Sequence record: OZ035786.1 | Source: Veterinaerplatzvirus T145P1 | DNA length: 45,312 bases | Strand: one strand, 5' to 3' | Shown here: piece by piece, positions 15,846 to 38,676 of the stretch | Position numbering within the stretch: position 1 is the first letter of the stretch | How the letters are laid out: each line of letters begins with the position of its first letter | Notes under the pieces: generated by a model | Told to the model about the DNA's origin: nothing | What the model saw: the letters and a program-made list of their open reading frames with translations, nothing else | Database searches by the model: none | Made by a program: the position numbers and the translations under genes

Positions 15846-18800
15846 ATGGCACAAATGATCAAAACAAACATGAGGCTTTGTGATATGGCTGAAGATATTA
15901 AGATTTATGGTGCTAAGGGTGGTAGCCAGAAGCAGCACCAACCAGTGGAACAAGAAGACAACCTGATTTCATTAAACAAGGTCAAGGTATTACTTGCGGT
16001 TGCTGACGGCGAGGTTGACCCTAACTTCTCAATGAAAGATTTATACCTTGCTGACGTTCCGGTGCAAAACCAGGATGGTAGCTACAACTATGATGGTGTT
16101 CGCGCTGAGTTCCGTGCTGGCACGCAGTATCAGGACTATATCGCCGGGCTTGACGGTGCTAACTCAGAGATTCAGGCATCCAGAGAAATCAAGAACGATA
16201 CCCCGTACATCATTGCGGTTAACAATACTCAGCTTTCAGCAATTCGAGTTAAGCTATTTTGGCCTCGACTGGTTAAGCAAGAAAACAACGGAGACCTGAA
16301 CGGAACAACTTGCGAGTACGCAATTGACCTTTCTGTTAATGGTGGTGCTTACCAGGAATACACTCGCGGAGTTGCTAACGGCAAGACAACTACAGGTTAC
16401 GACCGAAGCATTCGCGTAAACCTTCCGGCAGAGTTTGATAGTGCGCTTGTTCGCATCCGTAAGATTACAGCTGACTCAACGAGCAGCACACTGGTTAACG
16501 GAATGCAGATTACAACCTATCAGGAAGTAATCGACGCCAAATTCCGCTACCCGCTTACGGCTCTGGTCTATGTTGAGTTTGGTTCTGACTTGTTCCCTAA
16601 CGGCATCCCGACAATCTCAATAAAGAAGCGTTGGAAGCTAATTCAGGTACCGACAAACTACGACCCGGAGACAAGGACTTACAGCGGGACATGGAATGGC
16701 TTATTCAAGATGGCATGGTCGAATAACCCGGCATGGGTTCTCTATGACCTGGTGACAAACCGACGCTATGGGCTTGACCAGCGAGAGTTGGGTGTAGAGA
16801 TTGATAAATGGGGCTTGTATGAAGCCGCGCAATTCTGTGACCAGATGGTTCCAGATGGTAAGGGTGGTTTAGAGCCGCGTTACCTTTGCGATATGGTTGT
16901 GCAAAACAAGGTTGAGGCCTACACGCTAATTCGTGATATCTGCTCAATCTTCCGTGGTCTGACTTTCTATGACGGTGAAAAGATTGGTATCGTGGTTGAT
17001 AAGCCTCGCAACCCATCTTACATCTTCACCAATGATAACGTTGTAAACGGATTGTTCAGTCGAACCTTTGCCAGTGATAAAAGCCTTTACACCACGGCAA
17101 ACGTCCAGTTTGATGATGTAGAGAACAACTATCAACAGGATGTTGAGCCGGTATTTGAATTAGAGGCAACTCGTCGTTTTGGATTTAACCCTGTAGATTT
17201 AACTGCGATTGGATGCACTCGCAGAAGTGAAGCAAACAGACGTGGCAGATGGCTCCTGAAAACAAACCTGAGAAGCGAAACTATCAGCTTCACTACTGGG
17301 TTGGAAGGTATGATTCCGATGATTGGCGAGGTAATTGCGGTCAATGACGCTGCATGGTCTAGCAACTATCAGTTAAACCTTTCCGGTCGTATTGAGTCAG
17401 TTCAGGGGTTGCAGGTTTTTACCCCTTTTAAAGTTGACGCAGCGCCTGGTGACAGAATTCTTCTGAACAAGCCAGACGGAAGTCCAGAGGCAAGAACTAT
17501 TGCCAGCGTTTCGGAGGATGGAAGAACAATCAACCTTAACACTGCTTTTAGTTTTGTAGCTCAACCTGACACTGTTTTCGCAATCGATAAGGATAATCTC
17601 GCGCTTCAACAGTATGTTGTGACCGGGATTCAAAAAGCAGATTCTGATGGCTCTGATTCATTCCAGTATACGATTACCGCAGTAGAGTATGACCCGAACA
17701 AGTATGATGAGATTGATTATGGTGTAAACATTGTTGACCGCCCAACATCAATTGTTGAGCCTGATAGATTGTCGCCACCTGAGAACTTAACAGTATCAAG
17801 CTACAGTAAGGTTGTTCAAGGGTTGTCAGTTGAGACGATGGTTATCGGATGGGATAAAGCTCCATACGCTAAAACATACAATGTTCAGTGGAGGAAAGAA
17901 AATGGCAACTGGATTAACGTACCCAGAACGGCAAGTACAGAGGTTGATATCGAAGGTATTTACGCAGGAATCTATGACGTTAGGGTTCGCAGCGTATCAG
18001 ATACTGAAAACGTGTCTGCCTGGTCTGGCATTGTAACCGTATCGCTAACTGGCAAGATTGGTCGCCCATCGGCACCTACTGTTATCACGGCATCAACAGA
18101 TGAGGTATTTGGCATCCGTGTTAAGTGGGGTTTCCCTGAGGGTTCTGGTGACACTGCTTACACTGAACTTCAGCAGGTCCCTGATAATGGTGACGGCACT
18201 TACAATCCTGATAACGCAAGTTTGCTGACGTTACTGCCTTATCCAGCCTATGAATACTGGCACACGCCAATTCAGCCGGGTAAGGTCATCTGGTATCGCG
18301 CAAGATTGATTGACAGAATCGGCAATACCTCTGATTGGTCTTATTTCGCTAGAGGTATGAGTACTGACGACGCCAACATCATCAACGATTATATCAAGGT
18401 TGATATTGAAGGCTCGGAGGGTTTTAAATACCTAGAGCAGAATGCGATTCAAAAGAACCAGGACATTCAGAATCAAGCCGAGGCAATCATCGAGAACGCG
18501 CTGGCTAATGATGGCGATGTTCGTCGCATGACTAAGGAGAACGGCAAGCGTAAGGCTGAATATGTTCAGGCTGTGAATCTCATAGCTGATGAAACTCAGG
18601 CGCGTGTAGAGGCTCTTACGCAGCTTAAAGCGCAGATTGATGATGAGGTTGTTTCATCGATTACAGAAGTTCAGACTGCATTAGCAACAGAGACAGAAGC
18701 AAGAACTACTGCGGATACGGCTCTATCAGCAAGACTTGGTGAAAACGAGGCTGCACTAAACCAGAAGCTGGACGCTTTTTCTAACGCCACATCGACTGGT

Positions 18801-19271
18801 GTACAGTATGGGATTAGTCTTGGCCTGAAATACAACGGACAGACTTATTCATCCGGCATGAGTATGGAGCTTGTTGGCACTGGTGGGAATGTTCGCAGTC
18901 AGTTCATCTTTGACGCAAACAGATTCGCAATCAGTAACGGCATTGGTTCTGGTTCCGGTCAGTGGCAACTCCCATTCGTTGTAGAGAATGGAAACGTAAT
19001 AATCCAAAGCGCAGTAATCGGCGATGGCTCAATTACTAACGCTAAGATTGGTAATATAATTTCATCAAATGATTATGTGGCAGGCTCTCAGGGATGGGCG
19101 ATACTGAAAAGTGGTGCGTCAGAGTTCAATAACACAACTGTAAGGGGCAATCTTTACGCTAACAATGGTAACTTTGCTTTTAACGGAACCAATAACACGG
19201 TTCAGATTAACAATAACGGAATCACTGTAAACTTACCGAACGGAGGAAGAGTGGTAGTTGGAGTGTGGTAA
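15846..19271 (+). CDS. central tail fibre / host specificity protein (lambda J-like)
   Basis: 1141 aa following M-L-K-I; in-frame alternative ATGs at 15870 and 15885 (the latter with a weak SD), so the true start is uncertain. Confidence 0.85.
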   Translation: MAQMIKTNMRLCDMAEDIKIYGAKGGSQKQHQPVEQEDNLISLNKVKVLLAVADGEVDPNFSMKDLYLADVPVQNQDGSYNYDGVRAEFRAGTQYQDYIAGLDGANSEIQASREIKNDTPYIIAVNNTQLSAIRVKLFWPRLVKQENNGDLNGTTCEYAIDLSVNGGAYQEYTRGVANGKTTTGYDRSIRVNLPAEFDSALVRIRKITADSTSSTLVNGMQITTYQEVIDAKFRYPLTALVYVEFGSDLFPNGIPTISIKKRWKLIQVPTNYDPETRTYSGTWNGLFKMAWSNNPAWVLYDLVTNRRYGLDQRELGVEIDKWGLYEAAQFCDQMVPDGKGGLEPRYLCDMVVQNKVEAYTLIRDICSIFRGLTFYDGEKIGIVVDKPRNPSYIFTNDNVVNGLFSRTFASDKSLYTTANVQFDDVENNYQQDVEPVFELEATRRFGFNPVDLTAIGCTRRSEANRRGRWLLKTNLRSETISFTTGLEGMIPMIGEVIAVNDAAWSSNYQLNLSGRIESVQGLQVFTPFKVDAAPGDRILLNKPDGSPEARTIASVSEDGRTINLNTAFSFVAQPDTVFAIDKDNLALQQYVVTGIQKADSDGSDSFQYTITAVEYDPNKYDEIDYGVNIVDRPTSIVEPDRLSPPENLTVSSYSKVVQGLSVETMVIGWDKAPYAKTYNVQWRKENGNWINVPRTASTEVDIEGIYAGIYDVRVRSVSDTENVSAWSGIVTVSLTGKIGRPSAPTVITASTDEVFGIRVKWGFPEGSGDTAYTELQQVPDNGDGTYNPDNASLLTLLPYPAYEYWHTPIQPGKVIWYRARLIDRIGNTSDWSYFARGMSTDDANIINDYIKVDIEGSEGFKYLEQNAIQKNQDIQNQAEAIIENALANDGDVRRMTKENGKRKAEYVQAVNLIADETQARVEALTQLKAQIDDEVVSSITEVQTALATETEARTTADTALSARLGENEAALNQKLDAFSNATSTGVQYGISLGLKYNGQTYSSGMSMELVGTGGNVRSQFIFDANRFAISNGIGSGSGQWQLPFVVENGNVIIQSAVIGDGSITNAKIGNIISSNDYVAGSQGWAILKSGASEFNNTTVRGNLYANNGNFAFNGTNNTVQINNNGITVNLPNGGRVVVGVW

Positions 19272-19302: not shown

Positions 19303-20274
19303 TTAGTAGAAGTTTGGGATAAATGGAAGTGCCATTGATATGTTCGTGTCGAAAGGAAACTGAGCGCCTGTCTGAGTTGAGTAGTTACCTATTACAGATC
19401 CAGGAACAGCCCTAACGGAGCCTCCAGACATGCAAACACCCTTGTATCGTAAGTTGTTATACCCTCCGGTAACTCTAGTTGTAGCGCCGCACCTAAGCAG
19501 CGGGAAGAAACCACCATTTATTGACTGATATCCATTGCTTATTTGTATAAATCCACCAAGAACGAATGGGCGGCGAACACTTGAAAAAACAATCTGACCA
19601 GAACTATTTGACATTGTGAGTCCAGGCCCGGCCGGTGGTGGTTCATTCCTGAATATCACCAGCTGAACATGGGTACTTGCCGCAACATCATCTGTACCTC
19701 CGTAGGTTATATCCCTACACCATATTGTTGATCCATCTGATTCAAGTGATACGTTTGGATTATCCCACTTGCCGAATGGTATTCCGCTAACTGGTAGCGA
19801 TGCTGCACCGTTAACCTGTATGCCCCCAACCCAGGCCGCAGACATTAGCCGCGAGTTGCTTGATATAGCAAGGAAATCAGTTGAGTTCTCAACAAGTATT
19901 CCAGGACTTGATGAGGATGAAGCCGGTAGTATCTCAAAGCAATTACCAGCAAAGTCAATTATTCGACCATTAGCACCATTGAAGTTGCTGATAGTTATCC
20001 TGCCAGTTCCGTCATTTACCTTTTGAAACCCGTTCATGTAATAAACTTCGGGTATAACATCGTAAGCGTCAACGTGGACTGCCTTCGTTGGTAGGCAGAA
20101 AGCCGTAGAGCCAGGAAACATTGTCAATCCAAAATCCCACGAGATTGCCGGGGTTGAAAGTCCATTGGTATTTATTGATCCAGTCACAGCAGGTGCCCTT
20201 AATCCTGCCGTGATTTCCATCGCTGGTCTTCCGTCATTGAGGTCAATCAATATACCCTGCGGCATTATTTCCAC
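19303..20274 (-). CDS. putative receptor-binding protein (tail tip accessory, downstream of J, opposite strand)
   Basis: 323-aa Gly/Ser/Asn-rich ORF co-transcribed with a lipoprotein gene; arrangement resembles receptor-binding protein plus exclusion lipoprotein loci of T1/T5-type phages. Confidence 0.4.
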
Positions 20275-24074: not shown

Positions 24075-24100
24075 TAAGGCCCCTTTTGGGGCCTTTTTTA
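24075..24100. terminator. bidirectional rho-independent terminator
   Basis: ggcccc-tttt-ggggcc hairpin between ssb (+) and tailspike (-) stops, T-run on both strands. Confidence 0.8.
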
Positions 24101-26683
24101 TTAACCTATTTTAGTGTAAGTCCATTGGTATGTTGCAGCTCCCTTGGCAGTTATCCCGACAGTTCTTCCACTTACATCCATTGAAGTGAAAGCGCCAGTT
24201 TTTGTAATTGTTATTGATGATGTGGAACCATCAAAAAGTACGTCAGCAATTACACTATAGTTAGGTCCAGCACCAGTAACCCAGGTCGAAACCTTGTATA
24301 AACCAGCGTTGTTTGGCAACTCAAAAAGACCAGTTGAAACATTCGCCTGAACAGCCATCGCGCCCTTTCCGGTGTACACACCGTCAGTTTTAAGACCTAA
24401 TGATGAATATGTTTGCTTATAGCCACCAATGATGGCACCACCCATAGGTTCAGTAAACCAGTTCACATTACCCTGACTAACAACAGATATCGCTGGAGAC
24501 CCCCCTTTAGCTGACTGAAACCTACCGCTTAAAATGTCAATTCTAGATGCTGAGTCCTGGGCGTAGATAGTTACAGGATACCCACCAGAACCAGTGTAAA
24601 CCAAGCCGTTATCATTAATGTCATCTTCAGACGAGTCAATGATTACATGGGAAGTTCCAGACGCCTTGATGAACGAAACAACACCGCTAGAACCAGCACC
24701 TGTTGTTCTAACTTCATTCTTCCATGATGTTAGGCCTGAAATTCTGCCATTTGAGTTATTAAACCTAATCAGGCAACAATCTTGCGATCCGTTGGTGTCA
24801 ATAATGTTACCTTCAACGTCCATCCCTAGTATGTTTACGCTATGGCTGTTGATGAAGTTAATCCCAGCACCACCGTAAGAACCAGATGTTGATGATATAT
24901 TACTGGCATCCATTGCGCAGTTAATCATTGTAACGCTCATTACCGAACCAAATTCATAAGGTGAAATGCAATCTGATGCGTAACAAGTCTCAAGCAATAT
25001 TGTCGTTCCTGTCGCCTTTATGAATCCAGTCCTGCAATTCCTGGCCCAAACATTCTGTAGCTTAGTCTGGTATGTTGCAGTGGTGTCCGTGTAGCAACCC
25101 CATGCTCCATGGACTGTGCAATCTTTGATACATGAATTTTCTAGCCCTGTTGCAGAACCAACATTAGAAACGAAGTTAAATGCTATCTTTTGATCATTCC
25201 CTGATGCTGAGGTAGGTGTAGTGCCTGGGTTATAAAAAATGTAAAGTCCCTCAATAAACACTTGATACATTCTTATGTTTTGCGCATCACCCTGAACCAG
25301 GGCGAATAGGTTTATGTTCCCATCAACTGAGATAAATGTTTGCGCCCTGTTAATTTGGTTTGTTCCCTCGCCAATAATTCTTGTACTGTTGCCAATCCTC
25401 ACCGTCCTGTTAATGAACATAAAACCTTTTGGTATGTATACAGTTTTACCGGTATTAACTGCCGCCTGAAGCGCAACTGCGTCAAGTGACTCGTTAAGGT
25501 TTGATGCAAATGGATAAACAAACCGCGCATCCTCAATTGTCGAGAATTTAGATGAAAGAGGAACTAAAGTACCATTGTTTGTAGCACCAAAATCCATGAC
25601 GTTAACAAAGTCACCAAGTTTACTATCCTTACTCCTTTCTACAAATGAGGCCAATGTAGATTTGTAATTCATCGAACTGAATTGTGATTGAGCCTCTGTC
25701 TTTGAATAAACATCTGATCTTGGGTAAACCTCTGATTTTGAATAAACATCAAGCAAACCCCTAGCTCTTTCAGCAGTAGCGCCGCCAACCGACTTCCCGC
25801 CTTCAACCATAATGTATTCGCGTAAGTAGAAGTTTCTTGATCCTTTAGCGCCCGTCATCCTGAGGTGAGTAGCCCTATATGATGAATCAGAATTCAATGC
25901 CGGATATATATCAATCTCATAAGAGCCTTGAGCTCCACTTGTGCCCCTAACACATATAAAAAGCGTAGCGTTGGCTGTAGTGTATGTCGCAGCTAGTGAT
26001 GCTGGAACGTTTGTCATGTTAGATACTACAACTCGATAATTACCACCACTTTTAAATTCAACTTGCTGCCAATCCAATGATGGCATAGCTATTGTCGATG
26101 TGCTTGCGATACCCTCATTGGCTAGAGTAACCAAAGTTGCAGCATCACCAGCGTTGGCAATGACATTAACTGTGTTGTTGTATGCCTCCTGCGCACTACT
26201 TGCGCTTGATTCAGCCTGAGCCTTGCTTGTAGCGGCAGCTTGCTGGCTGGCAGATGCAGCCGATTCGCTTGAAGCCGCATTTGTTTCGCTTGCCTTCGCC
26301 TCATCAACTAATCGTTGTAACTTATCGAAATCAAAATCACCAGATTCAGCCAACTCAACAAGTGACGCAACCTCAGTTTCACGTGACTGATAGTAACGAA
26401 GAGTTTCCGCAACATCCTGAGCTAGCCCCTGAACGGTAATTCCATCATGCGCAAGGATAGCGTAACCAGTTCCAGCAGGAACAGTTTCGGAGTTAGGGTT
26501 GTAAACATTAATCTGCGTATCGCTGATAATTTCTGAGATGGTGTAAATCTGTACTGGTTCAGTTTTAAATACAATGGTTGCACCTACGCGAATCAGTGTA
26601 AGAGGTGCTTTCCATGTTGTCCCGACGCCAGTCACCTCACCACTTGCTGCTAGAGAAGCTGTTCCTGAGTCATAAATTGCCAT
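24101..26683 (-). CDS. tailspike / lateral tail fibre with beta-helix (pectate-lyase-like) depolymerase domain
   Basis: Start moved to Met11 of track ORF (SD ggaga 9 nt upstream; track start is GTG). Ala/Ser/Gln-rich coiled-coil neck, then long Cys/Asn/Gly-rich repeat region typical of right-handed beta-helix tailspikes. Confidence 0.7.
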   Translation of the reverse strand: MAIYDSGTASLAASGEVTGVGTTWKAPLTLIRVGATIVFKTEPVQIYTISEIISDTQINVYNPNSETVPAGTGYAILAHDGITVQGLAQDVAETLRYYQSRETEVASLVELAESGDFDFDKLQRLVDEAKASETNAASSESAASASQQAAATSKAQAESSASSAQEAYNNTVNVIANAGDAATLVTLANEGIASTSTIAMPSLDWQQVEFKSGGNYRVVVSNMTNVPASLAATYTTANATLFICVRGTSGAQGSYEIDIYPALNSDSSYRATHLRMTGAKGSRNFYLREYIMVEGGKSVGGATAERARGLLDVYSKSEVYPRSDVYSKTEAQSQFSSMNYKSTLASFVERSKDSKLGDFVNVMDFGATNNGTLVPLSSKFSTIEDARFVYPFASNLNESLDAVALQAAVNTGKTVYIPKGFMFINRTVRIGNSTRIIGEGTNQINRAQTFISVDGNINLFALVQGDAQNIRMYQVFIEGLYIFYNPGTTPTSASGNDQKIAFNFVSNVGSATGLENSCIKDCTVHGAWGCYTDTTATYQTKLQNVWARNCRTGFIKATGTTILLETCYASDCISPYEFGSVMSVTMINCAMDASNISSTSGSYGGAGINFINSHSVNILGMDVEGNIIDTNGSQDCCLIRFNNSNGRISGLTSWKNEVRTTGAGSSGVVSFIKASGTSHVIIDSSEDDINDNGLVYTGSGGYPVTIYAQDSASRIDILSGRFQSAKGGSPAISVVSQGNVNWFTEPMGGAIIGGYKQTYSSLGLKTDGVYTGKGAMAVQANVSTGLFELPNNAGLYKVSTWVTGAGPNYSVIADVLFDGSTSSITITKTGAFTSMDVSGRTVGITAKGAATYQWTYTKIG

Positions 26684-26706
26684 TGTGTAGAGTCTCCATT
26701 TGTAAA

Positions 26707-26725
26707 ATAGCACGAATTGCTAAAG
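26707..26725. promoter_or_regulatory. orphan copy of the TAGCA-N5-TGCTA palindrome (no TATAGT box downstream)
   Basis: atagcacgaattgctaaag in + orientation between primase terminator and tailspike start, both on minus strand. Confidence 0.5.
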
Positions 26726-26747
26726 TGGATTGTAGCATCTTTGAGTC

Positions 26748-26770
26748 ATAAAAAAACCTCCCGAAGGAGG
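26748..26770 (-). terminator. rho-independent terminator (minus strand)
   Basis: cctcc-cgaa-ggagg hairpin with A8 run on + strand, i.e. U-run after the hairpin on the minus transcript. Confidence 0.7.
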
Positions 26771-27697
26771 TTAGTCTAGTAATTCGCTCGCCTTGTATAT
26801 TCGCTTTCTTATTCCTGATTTGAAGTGGTTATCATTATTTGGCATTACAACATCAAGATTGCGATCGTCAGCAACGGCGAGTAAATCAAAATCGCTGCGA
26901 GTACAAGCGATGCGTAACTTGTAGTTTCTAAGCGCGTAAGCAACCATTTCCATGTTGTAACTGGAGTGGCAAACAAGCACACAGCGGTTCCCAGTAGCAA
27001 TGTGAACGCGATAGCCATCAATGAAATTATCGACCAGATAAGCGTACTCATCATCCTTAAAGGAACCAATAACAGAAACAGACTGGCGAGAATAATCTTT
27101 TGCAGCATAACTAACATCTCCCTCCTCATTGATAAACATTACATTGCACATCTCTTCTGATATGCCGTCACTATAAGCCATAAAGCACGGAACTGCGTGG
27201 ATTAATTCACCTGATTTCGTCCTGCCAACATCAAAACCGAACTCGCTATAGATACCCTCGTATGTACTGAGAGGAGTTGATTCTACTCTTTCCGTCCTTT
27301 CCATTATCTCTAAGCATCTTTCGTGATCAATCTGAGCGCCCATTTTGTATGGTGATGTTCTTGAAGCTCTTTTGTTTGCTTTTGATATAACCTCTACTGG
27401 AACGAGATTCAGCCAATCACCAAGCGTATCTATTGTTTCACTATAACTCATTCCAGAACACTTCATTACCCAACCAACACCAGAATCATTTCCACACTGG
27501 TTGCATATTGCTGCGCCATTTCCCTTTTCTTGACCTAACTCATCAGTGAAGCGAAACCTATCCTTGCCAAAGCAGTAAGGGCACGGACCATGTTTCTTGC
27601 TGAGATTCTCCTTTGTCCATCCAAGATGCGATGAGTAGAACTCACTCCACATCCCTTTCATCTTGGCTATCACTTCGTTCTTATCATGGTGACTCAT
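26771..27697 (-). CDS. DNA primase (zinc-ribbon plus TOPRIM-like)
   Basis: Start moved to Met10 (SD ggaggt 4 nt upstream). CPYC...CNQC zinc-binding pair; acidic AVADDRNLD TOPRIM-like motif. Confidence 0.55.
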   Translation of the reverse strand: MSHHDKNEVIAKMKGMWSEFYSSHLGWTKENLSKKHGPCPYCFGKDRFRFTDELGQEKGNGAAICNQCGNDSGVGWVMKCSGMSYSETIDTLGDWLNLVPVEVISKANKRASRTSPYKMGAQIDHERCLEIMERTERVESTPLSTYEGIYSEFGFDVGRTKSGELIHAVPCFMAYSDGISEEMCNVMFINEEGDVSYAAKDYSRQSVSVIGSFKDDEYAYLVDNFIDGYRVHIATGNRCVLVCHSSYNMEMVAYALRNYKLRIACTRSDFDLLAVADDRNLDVVMPNNDNHFKSGIRKRIYKASELLD

Positions 27698-37991: not shown

Positions 37992-38035
37992 ACTATACAG
38001 GAAAAGCCCCGAATGGCTTTAGCGATTAGTGCTAT
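37992..38035 (-). promoter_or_regulatory. phage promoter family copy (minus strand)
   Basis: Reverse complement reads atagcactaatcgctaaag, 22 bp, tatagtta, tcccatcgaaacgaaaga leader. Confidence 0.55.
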
Positions 38036-38270
38036 TTATTGCCTTTCGCCCAAGTGGTGTTATCGCTACCTTATACCAAGTTCCAATTTCTGGATTATTT
38101 ACATTATATGCCAGATCTACATAGCCTAGCCGAAATAGTTTTGGTATACACCTGGATGAATTGCCAGAATCTCGAATCCTTCCTCGACTAAAGTCATAAC
38201 TTATTTGATGAATTTCTCCATTTTGAATGCAGTGGAGGGTTTTTATTGCAGTTTCAGAAATTTTAATCAT
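38019..38270 (-). CDS. hypothetical protein
   Basis: 83-aa ORF from the track; 3' end overlaps the promoter copy. Confidence 0.5.
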   Translation of the reverse strand: MIKISETAIKTLHCIQNGEIHQISYDFSRGRIRDSGNSSRCIPKLFRLGYVDLAYNVNNPEIGTWYKVAITPLGRKAINSTNR

Positions 38271-38434
38271 TTATGTTCACCATTAATATTCTTTGCTTTT
38301 TCTATCGCCTTGAGCATAATCTCGTGACTTTCCAGTAAGTCCTCTCGGAACCAATCTCCACAAGGCCAGCCTTTTCCGCTATAGGCACTTATGACCTCGA
38401 GATCGAAATAATTTATCTCAGATGGTAATAGCAT
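38267..38434 (-). CDS. hypothetical small protein
   Basis: 55-aa ORF (MLLPSEINYFDLEV...) below the track cut-off, filling the gap between two track ORFs with overlapping stop/start codons. Confidence 0.35.
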   Translation of the reverse strand: MLLPSEINYFDLEVISAYSGKGWPCGDWFREDLLESHEIMLKAIEKAKNINGEHK

Positions 38435-38676
38435 CACTTCACCTCATCAAAAGTTGCAATCCCAGGAATAAACATCCCAACCTTCCAGCCTGCAATGGCA
38501 ATCCATCCAGAATCGTGCTTGTGCGGTCGCTCAGCGCCATTAATCACCCATTCGTTCGGGATTGTCTTGCCGTTAATGATTAGAGGCTCAGCGTCGTATA
38601 CAGAGCCTTTAACGAATGGTGTTAAGGCTTTCTTGTCAGTGCTATTGATAACGTTAGTGCAGATTATTTTAGTCAT
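38434..38676 (-). CDS. hypothetical protein
   Basis: 80-aa ORF from the track. Confidence 0.5.
   Translation of the reverse strand: MTKIICTNVINSTDKKALTPFVKGSVYDAEPLIINGKTIPNEWVINGAERPHKHDSGWIAIAGWKVGMFIPGIATFDEVK

Follow-up and report, generated by a model that had tools for sequence, protein, structure and literature searches.

Lateral tail fibers of Drexlerviridae and the T145P1 spike

The Drexlerviridae locus for lateral tail fibers, and how it varies, have been covered by the BASEL papers, in which the locus is reported to be conserved at its 5' end only and O-antigen binding by lateral tail fibers is put forward as a proposal, without demonstration (PMC8594841). The same position in Veterinaerplatzvirus T145P1, a T1-like coliphage of siphovirus type (Drexlerviridae, Braunvirinae; record OZ035786.1, 45,312 nucleotides (nt), the whole of which is called the window below), is occupied by an unannotated gene for a protein of 860 amino acids (aa) at 24101..26683 on the reverse strand, with its stop codon at 24101-24103. 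The initial annotation, made from the letters of the window, had proposed a reverse-strand protein of 860 aa here, which is borne out by the list of open reading frames (ORFs) and their translations. The literature on T145P1 and Veterinaerplatzvirus holds nothing on this gene, hereafter the spike gene, or on the host. In the ORF map of the window it is encoded on the opposite strand and is flanked by the SSB/recombination genes on one side and the primase/helicase genes on the other, and the gene order is the same in the phages JeanPiccard and SU57: a regulator and the primase upstream on the same strand, and convergent SSB, recombinase, and exonuclease genes beyond. Because the gene is 99.9% identical in nucleotide sequence to two Veterinaerplatzvirus T145P1 records, both without annotation, and 1056 database proteins match its product at E<=1e-3, it is a real gene and no chance ORF. 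By megablast, 73 phage records match it, mostly over just the ~300-330 nt coding for the N-terminus; the far N-terminus is conserved and the remainder hypervariable, with unrelated C-terminal modules behind the same N-terminus. The product is a lateral tail fiber of Drexlerviridae, in form a short tailspike, and is presumably displayed laterally on the virion tail as a homotrimer, by analogy with established tailspikes.

Comparisons of protein (in 20-aa windows) and nucleotide sequences divide the spike into three modules, A (aa 1-105), B (aa 106-354), and C (aa ~355-860). The lateral tail fiber protein of JeanPiccard (Bas02; Drexlerviridae, Braunvirinae; QXV80800) shares the locus and this three-module layout, with 79% aa identity overall and 96% in module C; it is 18 aa shorter, and its module B is a diverged allele (10-50% identity per 20-aa window) that rises to 75-85% in the last 30 aa only, beside the B/C junction. 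The "tail spike protein" of SU57 (vB_EcoD_SU57; QLF84994) and the spike of the T145P1 variant OZ035767 occupy the same locus with the same flanking terminators and have an identical module A and a module C alike at the aa level (~93% and ~100%, respectively); they differ in a shorter, unrelated module B with PF18668, giving 777 aa versus 860 here. The 5' end of the lateral tail fiber gene of ETEP102 (Drexlerviridae, Nouzillyvirus) is ~91% identical in nucleotide sequence, but its depolymerase module is different, with O149 as the proposed target. The ETEP102 publication presents an AlphaFold2 model with an adaptor, a flexible coil, and two domains, depolymerase and tip, and a two-step model in which the O-antigen is engaged before an LptD-type terminal receptor.

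Outside this family, the spike shares a plan of anchor, bundle, neck, β-helix, and C-terminal domains with Depo32/DpK2 (PDB 7VZ3, 7VYV, 7LZJ), which is trimeric and cleaves the Klebsiella K2 capsule; the β-helix and C-terminal modules of the two proteins are unrelated in sequence. The tailspikes LKA1 gp49 (4RU4) and phi297 (4RU5) belong to podoviruses, carry a different anchor, and have the O-specific antigen of Pseudomonas as their target. Tailspikes of the P22/Sf6/HK620 type share the fold and, presumably, the task of binding and cleaving O-antigen; the identity of P22-like prophage spikes to module C is 52-53%. These spikes and those of 611R6 and the SCU-116 prophage, of the "O2" subtype discussed below, sit on P22-type head-binding or Uetakevirus anchors of podoviruses and act as the sole receptor-binding protein (RBP), whereas in T145P1 the module belongs to a siphovirus side fiber, which would act ahead of a separate terminal RBP. 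The spike is therefore an already catalogued kind of phage RBP, of which architecture, locus, mosaicism, and O2 subtype are all published, and the present findings leave the current understanding of these proteins unchanged. What is added are exact module boundaries, independent support for O2/O50, and the identification of the shaft as the differing part in the nearest relative.

A β-helix with a putative O2/O50 O-antigen receptor

An AlphaFold2 monomer model built from 53 homologs (mean predicted local distance difference test score (pLDDT) 70) contains an N-terminal β domain, a low-confidence stretch at aa 294-357, and, at aa ~358-745, a right-handed parallel β-helix with pLDDT mostly 75-92, as the initial annotation had anticipated. 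This putative glycan-binding or glycanase domain (aa 358-745; 24449..25612, reverse strand) is followed by a C-terminal β-sandwich tip domain (aa 746-860; 24104..24448, reverse strand) with modeled strands at 750-858 and pLDDT of 48-56 over aa 750-769 and ~83-93 over aa 770-860. The tip is co-inherited with the β-helix in every full-length module-C homolog and has no match in a Pfam scan; a Peptidase_S74 intramolecular chaperone was looked for at the C-terminus and not found, and PF13884 is present in some relatives carrying other C modules. The region had also been called a Cys/Asn/Gly-rich repeat: nine of the ten Cys of the spike do fall within aa 518-637, and aa 346-700 are rich in Ser, Gly, Asn, and Thr (10.7, 10.1, 9.3, and 9.0%), while the repeats are the structural rungs of the helix, sequence repeats not having been searched for there. 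In a PDB sequence search, aa 355-448 match the start of the β-helix of the LKA1 gp49 and phi297 tailspikes (E 1e-12), with no detectable similarity in the rest of the helix. The best fold matches of the β-helix are enzymes and enzymatic tailspikes. On this model, it is nearly certain that the protein is a fiber or tailspike with a β-helix receptor-binding domain.

The β-helix of this lateral tailspike very probably binds a surface glycan. The receptor is likely to be the O-antigen rather than another glycan, and a reasonable case can be made for the O2/O50 O-antigen specifically. Relatives of module C are scarce, 21 being found at E<=1e-30 among 1.84 billion cluster representatives. The nearest (89-96% identity) are all on Drexlerviridae-sized contigs; at 52-61% identity the module rides other anchors, namely 660-664-aa PF18668 spikes, 751-aa E. 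coli prophage "phage tail proteins", and a P22-type head-binding tailspike, and it also occurs in the tailspike of Lederbergvirus 611R6 (37.5% over aa 306-860) and in a Pectobacterium Kayfunavirus (34%). The JeanPiccard fiber, 611R6, and a prophage of strain SCU-116 were placed in one RBP subtype, defined by at least 30% identity over at least 60% of the receptor-binding domain, with the predicted receptor "O2" (Pas et al., 2023). With 96% identity to module C of JeanPiccard and 37.5% over 555 aa to the 611R6 tailspike, the T145P1 spike falls within this subtype.

Host genomes provide an independent association. The C-terminal 1557 nt of a prophage homolog (P0161) are present in seven of 5426 complete E. 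coli genomes. In one carrier, FT130, the wzx and wzy of the O-antigen cluster are annotated as "O2/O50 family" and are accompanied by rfbBDAC and a ketoisomerase/aminotransferase pair; this wzy is found in 133 of the 5426 genomes (a background of 2.45%). Since a chimeric query of spike and wzy again returned exactly 133 records, and each of the seven carriers had a wzy match in addition to one or more spike matches, all seven are O2/O50. A more sensitive search with the module C DNA of the T145P1 spike itself found the same seven plus BY63 and BY68. The chimeric query was uninformative for BY63, in which the spike ORF abuts the end of an IS100 (3995 records matched), and direct reading of its O-antigen cluster revealed O2/O50 wzx/wzy; BY68, of the same length and coordinates, was taken as a duplicate of BY63. 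O2/O50 wzx/wzy are therefore present in 9/9 complete E. coli genomes with a module-C homolog versus 133/5426 overall, and these nine carriers come from at least five strain backgrounds, with the homolog in three different prophage contexts. In all three (L006:4659-5783, L009:8292-10151, and L013:1278-4063) the spike gene adjoins an O-antigen-modifying cassette, namely an OafA-type acetyltransferase, an Acyl_transf_3 plus SGNH acyltransferase, or gtrABC, as is expected if the receptor is the O-antigen. Phage SU57, whose module C is ~93% identical, forms clear plaques with halos on ECOR57 and is productive only on ECOR57, 63, and 61, the last being O2:NM. The role in surface-polysaccharide specificity ascribed to the protein by the initial annotation is thereby supported indirectly, by the host association, the adjoining modification genes, the SU57 halos, and the published O2 prediction for the JeanPiccard fiber.

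Several points weigh against this reading. The published "O2" assignment was made in silico from the consistency of host serogroups at a 30% identity threshold (Pas et al., 2023). The O2/O50 association draws on prophage homologs that have just 52-53% identity to module C, with BY63 weaker still, so that specificity may have drifted. Two of the SU57 hosts, ECOR57 and ECOR63, are non-typeable by serology, SU57 fails to lyse ECOR49 (O2), and the SU57 halos are indirect evidence for enzymatic activity; moreover, the SU57 authors doubted that their spike gene is transcribed. JeanPiccard was isolated on K-12, on which its fiber is dispensable because this strain lacks O-antigen. In a Pfam scan of the whole spike, the pectate-lyase-like PF12708 stays below threshold (E 0.01, 16.1 bits versus a cut-off of 27) and PF13229 is absent, so that the β-helix assignment rests on structure prediction, and the sequence likeness to solved tailspikes is confined to the first ~90 residues of the β-helix domain.

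On the basis of the established tailspikes P22, Sf6, HK620, CBA120, and Depo32, which also underlie the presumed homotrimer and its docking, the following course can be proposed. The spike would reversibly bind the host O-antigen, most probably that of E. coli O2/O50; the β-helix would hold the O-antigen repeats along a groove and cleave them, probably as an endoglycosidase; and cleavage would move the virion toward the membrane until the tail tip reaches the outer membrane. The terminal receptor, probably LptD, would then be engaged by a separate RBP, whose gene (19303-20274) follows the J-like gene. By analogy with these proteins, catalysis by module C is moderately favored over binding only. 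PDB matches, with protein and family-profile queries alike, cover only the anchor and the first ~90 helix residues, so that no catalytic residues can be transferred from a solved homolog; the catalytic residues of Depo32 (E423, D497, E545, D546) have no sequence mapping onto the spike, to which similarity ends at aa ~198. Conservation within the family offers candidates instead. The acidic residues D533, D592, and E624 are invariant, as are D364 and D401 near the cap, and D622 and D687 are at least 92% conserved; D592, E624, N656, and D687 lie about one rung apart, a pattern that is repeated in sequences with as little as 36% identity. D533, D592, and E624 (also D364 and D401) are accordingly listed as candidate catalytic or substrate-binding residues.

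Three other accounts of the β-helix have to be weighed. The spike could act on another surface glycan, such as a K capsule, colanic acid, or the enterobacterial common antigen, and work, like its Klebsiella relatives, by depolymerizing a capsule. Its anchor and bundle are homologous to those of the K2-capsule depolymerase Depo32, halos are typical of capsule depolymerases as well, and many O2 strains are K1-capsulated ("O2:K1:H4" and "O2:K1:H7" records), so that an association with O2 could mask one with the capsule. However, the likeness to Depo32 does not extend beyond aa ~198, the β-helix being unrelated in sequence; the homologs in P22-like and lambdoid prophages directly adjoin O-antigen acetylation and glucosylation cassettes; and the carriers, which include porcine enterotoxigenic E. 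coli and cattle, bird, and wastewater isolates, have the O2/O50 cluster as the sole shared feature among those tested. K1-specific spikes, furthermore, are endosialidases of a different fold. We regard a non-O-antigen target as quite unlikely.

The mode of action has its own alternatives. That the β-helix is a non-catalytic fiber tip, adhering to the O-antigen without cleaving it, is possible though doubtful: D533, D592, and E624, together with D622 and D687, are kept at about one-rung spacing in sequences as distant as 36% identity, the top fold matches are enzymes and enzymatic tailspikes, and SU57 plaques are haloed. The partial match to LKA1 gp49 brings in polysaccharide lyases, and module C might cleave by β-elimination like LKA1 gp49, K5 lyase, and RbmB instead of by hydrolysis. 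The likeness spans just the cap and first rungs (~90 residues), however, and β-elimination requires a uronic acid. The O2/O50 clusters of FT130 and BY63 encode dTDP-rhamnose and dTDP-Fuc3NAc pathways and contain no uronic-acid pathway, which makes a hydrolase more plausible if O2/O50 is the substrate; a lyase is very unlikely.

Some observations on the carrier strains and SU57 hosts may be recorded here. The prophages with a module-C homolog and O-antigen cassettes suggest that O2/O50 lysogens are serotype-converted by them. The O-antigen clusters of FT130 (L012:13704-14075) and BY63 (L015:10718-11092) both have, between the 3,4-ketoisomerase and aminotransferase genes, an acyltransferase that the annotation breaks into two incomplete fragments marked as pseudogenes; this split gene, presumably that of a Fuc3N acetyltransferase, could be an annotation artifact or a real feature of a cluster variant. 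The 564-aa prophage spike of BY63/BY68 (L013:4149-7660) abuts IS100, has apparently lost its N-terminal anchor to the insertion, and is probably a remnant. An assignment of the SU57 host ECOR57 to O2 was considered and is unconfirmed, the strain being listed as ON:NM only.

An O2/O50-specific spike is a testable prediction for a gene that, like its phage record, carried no annotation; its practical value is modest. Serogroup O2 is common among extraintestinal pathogenic E. coli of birds and humans, and a validated O2 spike would help in typing, host-range engineering, and the antivirulence use of the enzyme.

Anchor, shaft, and cassette exchange

PHROG profiles bisect the spike into aa 1-368, which match tail-fiber families, and aa 344-860, which match phrog_8649 (function not assigned; E 2e-161). 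Module A (26369..26683, reverse strand) is an N-terminal β domain that is 100% identical to those of OZ035767 and SU57 in 20-aa windows and nearly invariant over aa 1-103 across the 53 homologs, and it matches the N-termini of many PHROG tail-fiber families. Judging from this conservation, it would be the anchor that docks the spike on the virion. A PDB sequence search matched aa 1-198 with aa 1-203 of Depo32/DpK2 (7LZJ; E 8e-42), the Klebsiella K2 depolymerase, in which the matched region comprises the anchor and a helical bundle that is invisible by cryo-EM. This match bears out the N-terminal domain and helical neck of the initial annotation.

Module B begins with this neck (aa 106-193; 26105..26368, reverse strand), an α-helical bundle with predicted helices at 84-113, 119-178, and 181-190. 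The low monomer pLDDT of the helices at aa 84-190 is as expected for a trimeric bundle modeled as a monomer. The neck had been described as rich in Ala, Ser, and Gln; over aa 111-200 this holds for Ala (25.6%) and Ser (15.6%) and is overstated for Gln (5.6%). Next come a compact, knob-like β domain of the shaft (aa 194-293; 25805..26104, reverse strand; modeled at 198-291), which has no match in a Pfam scan, and fiber repeats with a linker to the β-helix (aa 294-357; 25613..25804, reverse strand), again of low monomer pLDDT. This last part contains the sole sequence repeat noticed in the spike, DVYSK(S/T)E, with DVYSKSE at aa 312 and DVYSKTE at aa 324; the pattern GLLDVYSKxE...DVYSKxE is kept in the homolog alignment.

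The modules have separate histories. Nucleotide identity to OZ035767, of the same species, is 98.7% in A, 0% in B, and 98.4% in C; to SU57 it is 99.4%, 0%, and 89.8%; and to JeanPiccard 81%, 10.4%, and 93.3%. The block that cannot be aligned to OZ035767 extends from ~25621 to ~26368, which places the B/C breakpoint at about 25621. In OZ035767, SU57, and RobRod40, module B is shorter and unrelated and has a PF18668 Tail_spike_N domain. Conversely, two metagenomic proteins (P0027 and P0031) are 75-95% alike over A and B and have unrelated C modules. Because B is swapped with the same C in OZ035767 and SU57, and C is swapped with the same A and B in the metagenomic proteins, B and C assort independently. 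All three modules do so, by recombination at two conserved junctions, and spike alleles are thus rebuilt by cassette exchange. The mosaic nature of the spike gene was already remarked upon by the SU57 authors. The sharp A/B/C breakpoints are natural junctions for swapping modules between siphovirus fibers.

The initial annotation had taken the β-helix protein for the part of the genome most likely to differ from relatives. The spike gene is indeed the main difference from the nearest genome; the swapped piece, however, is module B (aa 106-354), and the β-helix is ~98% identical in nucleotide sequence. The window is ~100% identical to the OZ035767 genome except for the module B block, part of the J-like tip gene, and a segment near 38 kb. 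Identity to OZ035767 is ~90% distally in the J-like tip gene (17001-19000) and ~49% in the segment at 38001-38500; these are further recombination patches inside one phage species.

Since two isolates of one species carry unrelated B modules with the same anchor and β-helix, so that the shaft is exchanged independently of the head, module B might be a second functional determinant, either an extra binding site or a device for reach or flexibility, and not a passive spacer. We consider this improbable; if true, two cassettes that assort independently would tune the host range of these siphoviruses.

Gene boundaries, flanking signals, and neighboring genes

Counted from a GTG, the ORF of the spike extends over 24101..26713 on the reverse strand, and the ATG at 26683 yields exactly 860 aa. 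The upstream GTG lacks a ribosome-binding site (RBS). The ATG at 26683 is taken as the true start because an RBS candidate, GGAG (26697-26694), lies 10 nt upstream and MAIYD is the N-terminus in all homologs. Pattern scans found a GC-rich hairpin after the stop codon (24076..24095), a bidirectional terminator common to the spike gene and the convergent SSB gene and annotated at the same place in SU57, and a terminator-like hairpin (26755..26772, reverse strand) after the primase gene and directly upstream of the spike gene, an arrangement that is also annotated in SU57. Between this hairpin and the RBS, a possible extended -10 promoter element, TGcTACAAT (26729..26737, reverse strand), was noticed by eye; it is weak and absent from the output of a consensus promoter scan. 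With the upstream hairpin followed by a possible -10 element, the spike gene looks like a self-contained transcription unit.

The terminal RBP introduced above is an ORF of 323 aa (19303-20274, reverse strand) that comes immediately after the J-like tip gene (15846-19271). It shares 96% identity with the annotated "receptor binding protein" of OzMSK, which the OzMSK study treats as LptD-dependent, and on this similarity the phage appears to have a separate terminal-receptor RBP besides the spike. The same strand carries a small ORF immediately upstream of it, and relatives annotate a lipoprotein or Cor-like superinfection-exclusion gene beside the RBP.

Two of the database records carry typical coliphage Drexlerviridae fiber and RBP genes under other host names, MG065688 ("Campylobacter phage A110b") and PP134917 ("Pseudomonas phage PsgS01F"). 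In length (44,679 bp) and in match values, PsgS01F is exactly like Escherichia phage vB_EcoS_UALMA_PCEc3, and both the A110b and PsgS01F records are probably T1-like contaminants or have mislabeled hosts.

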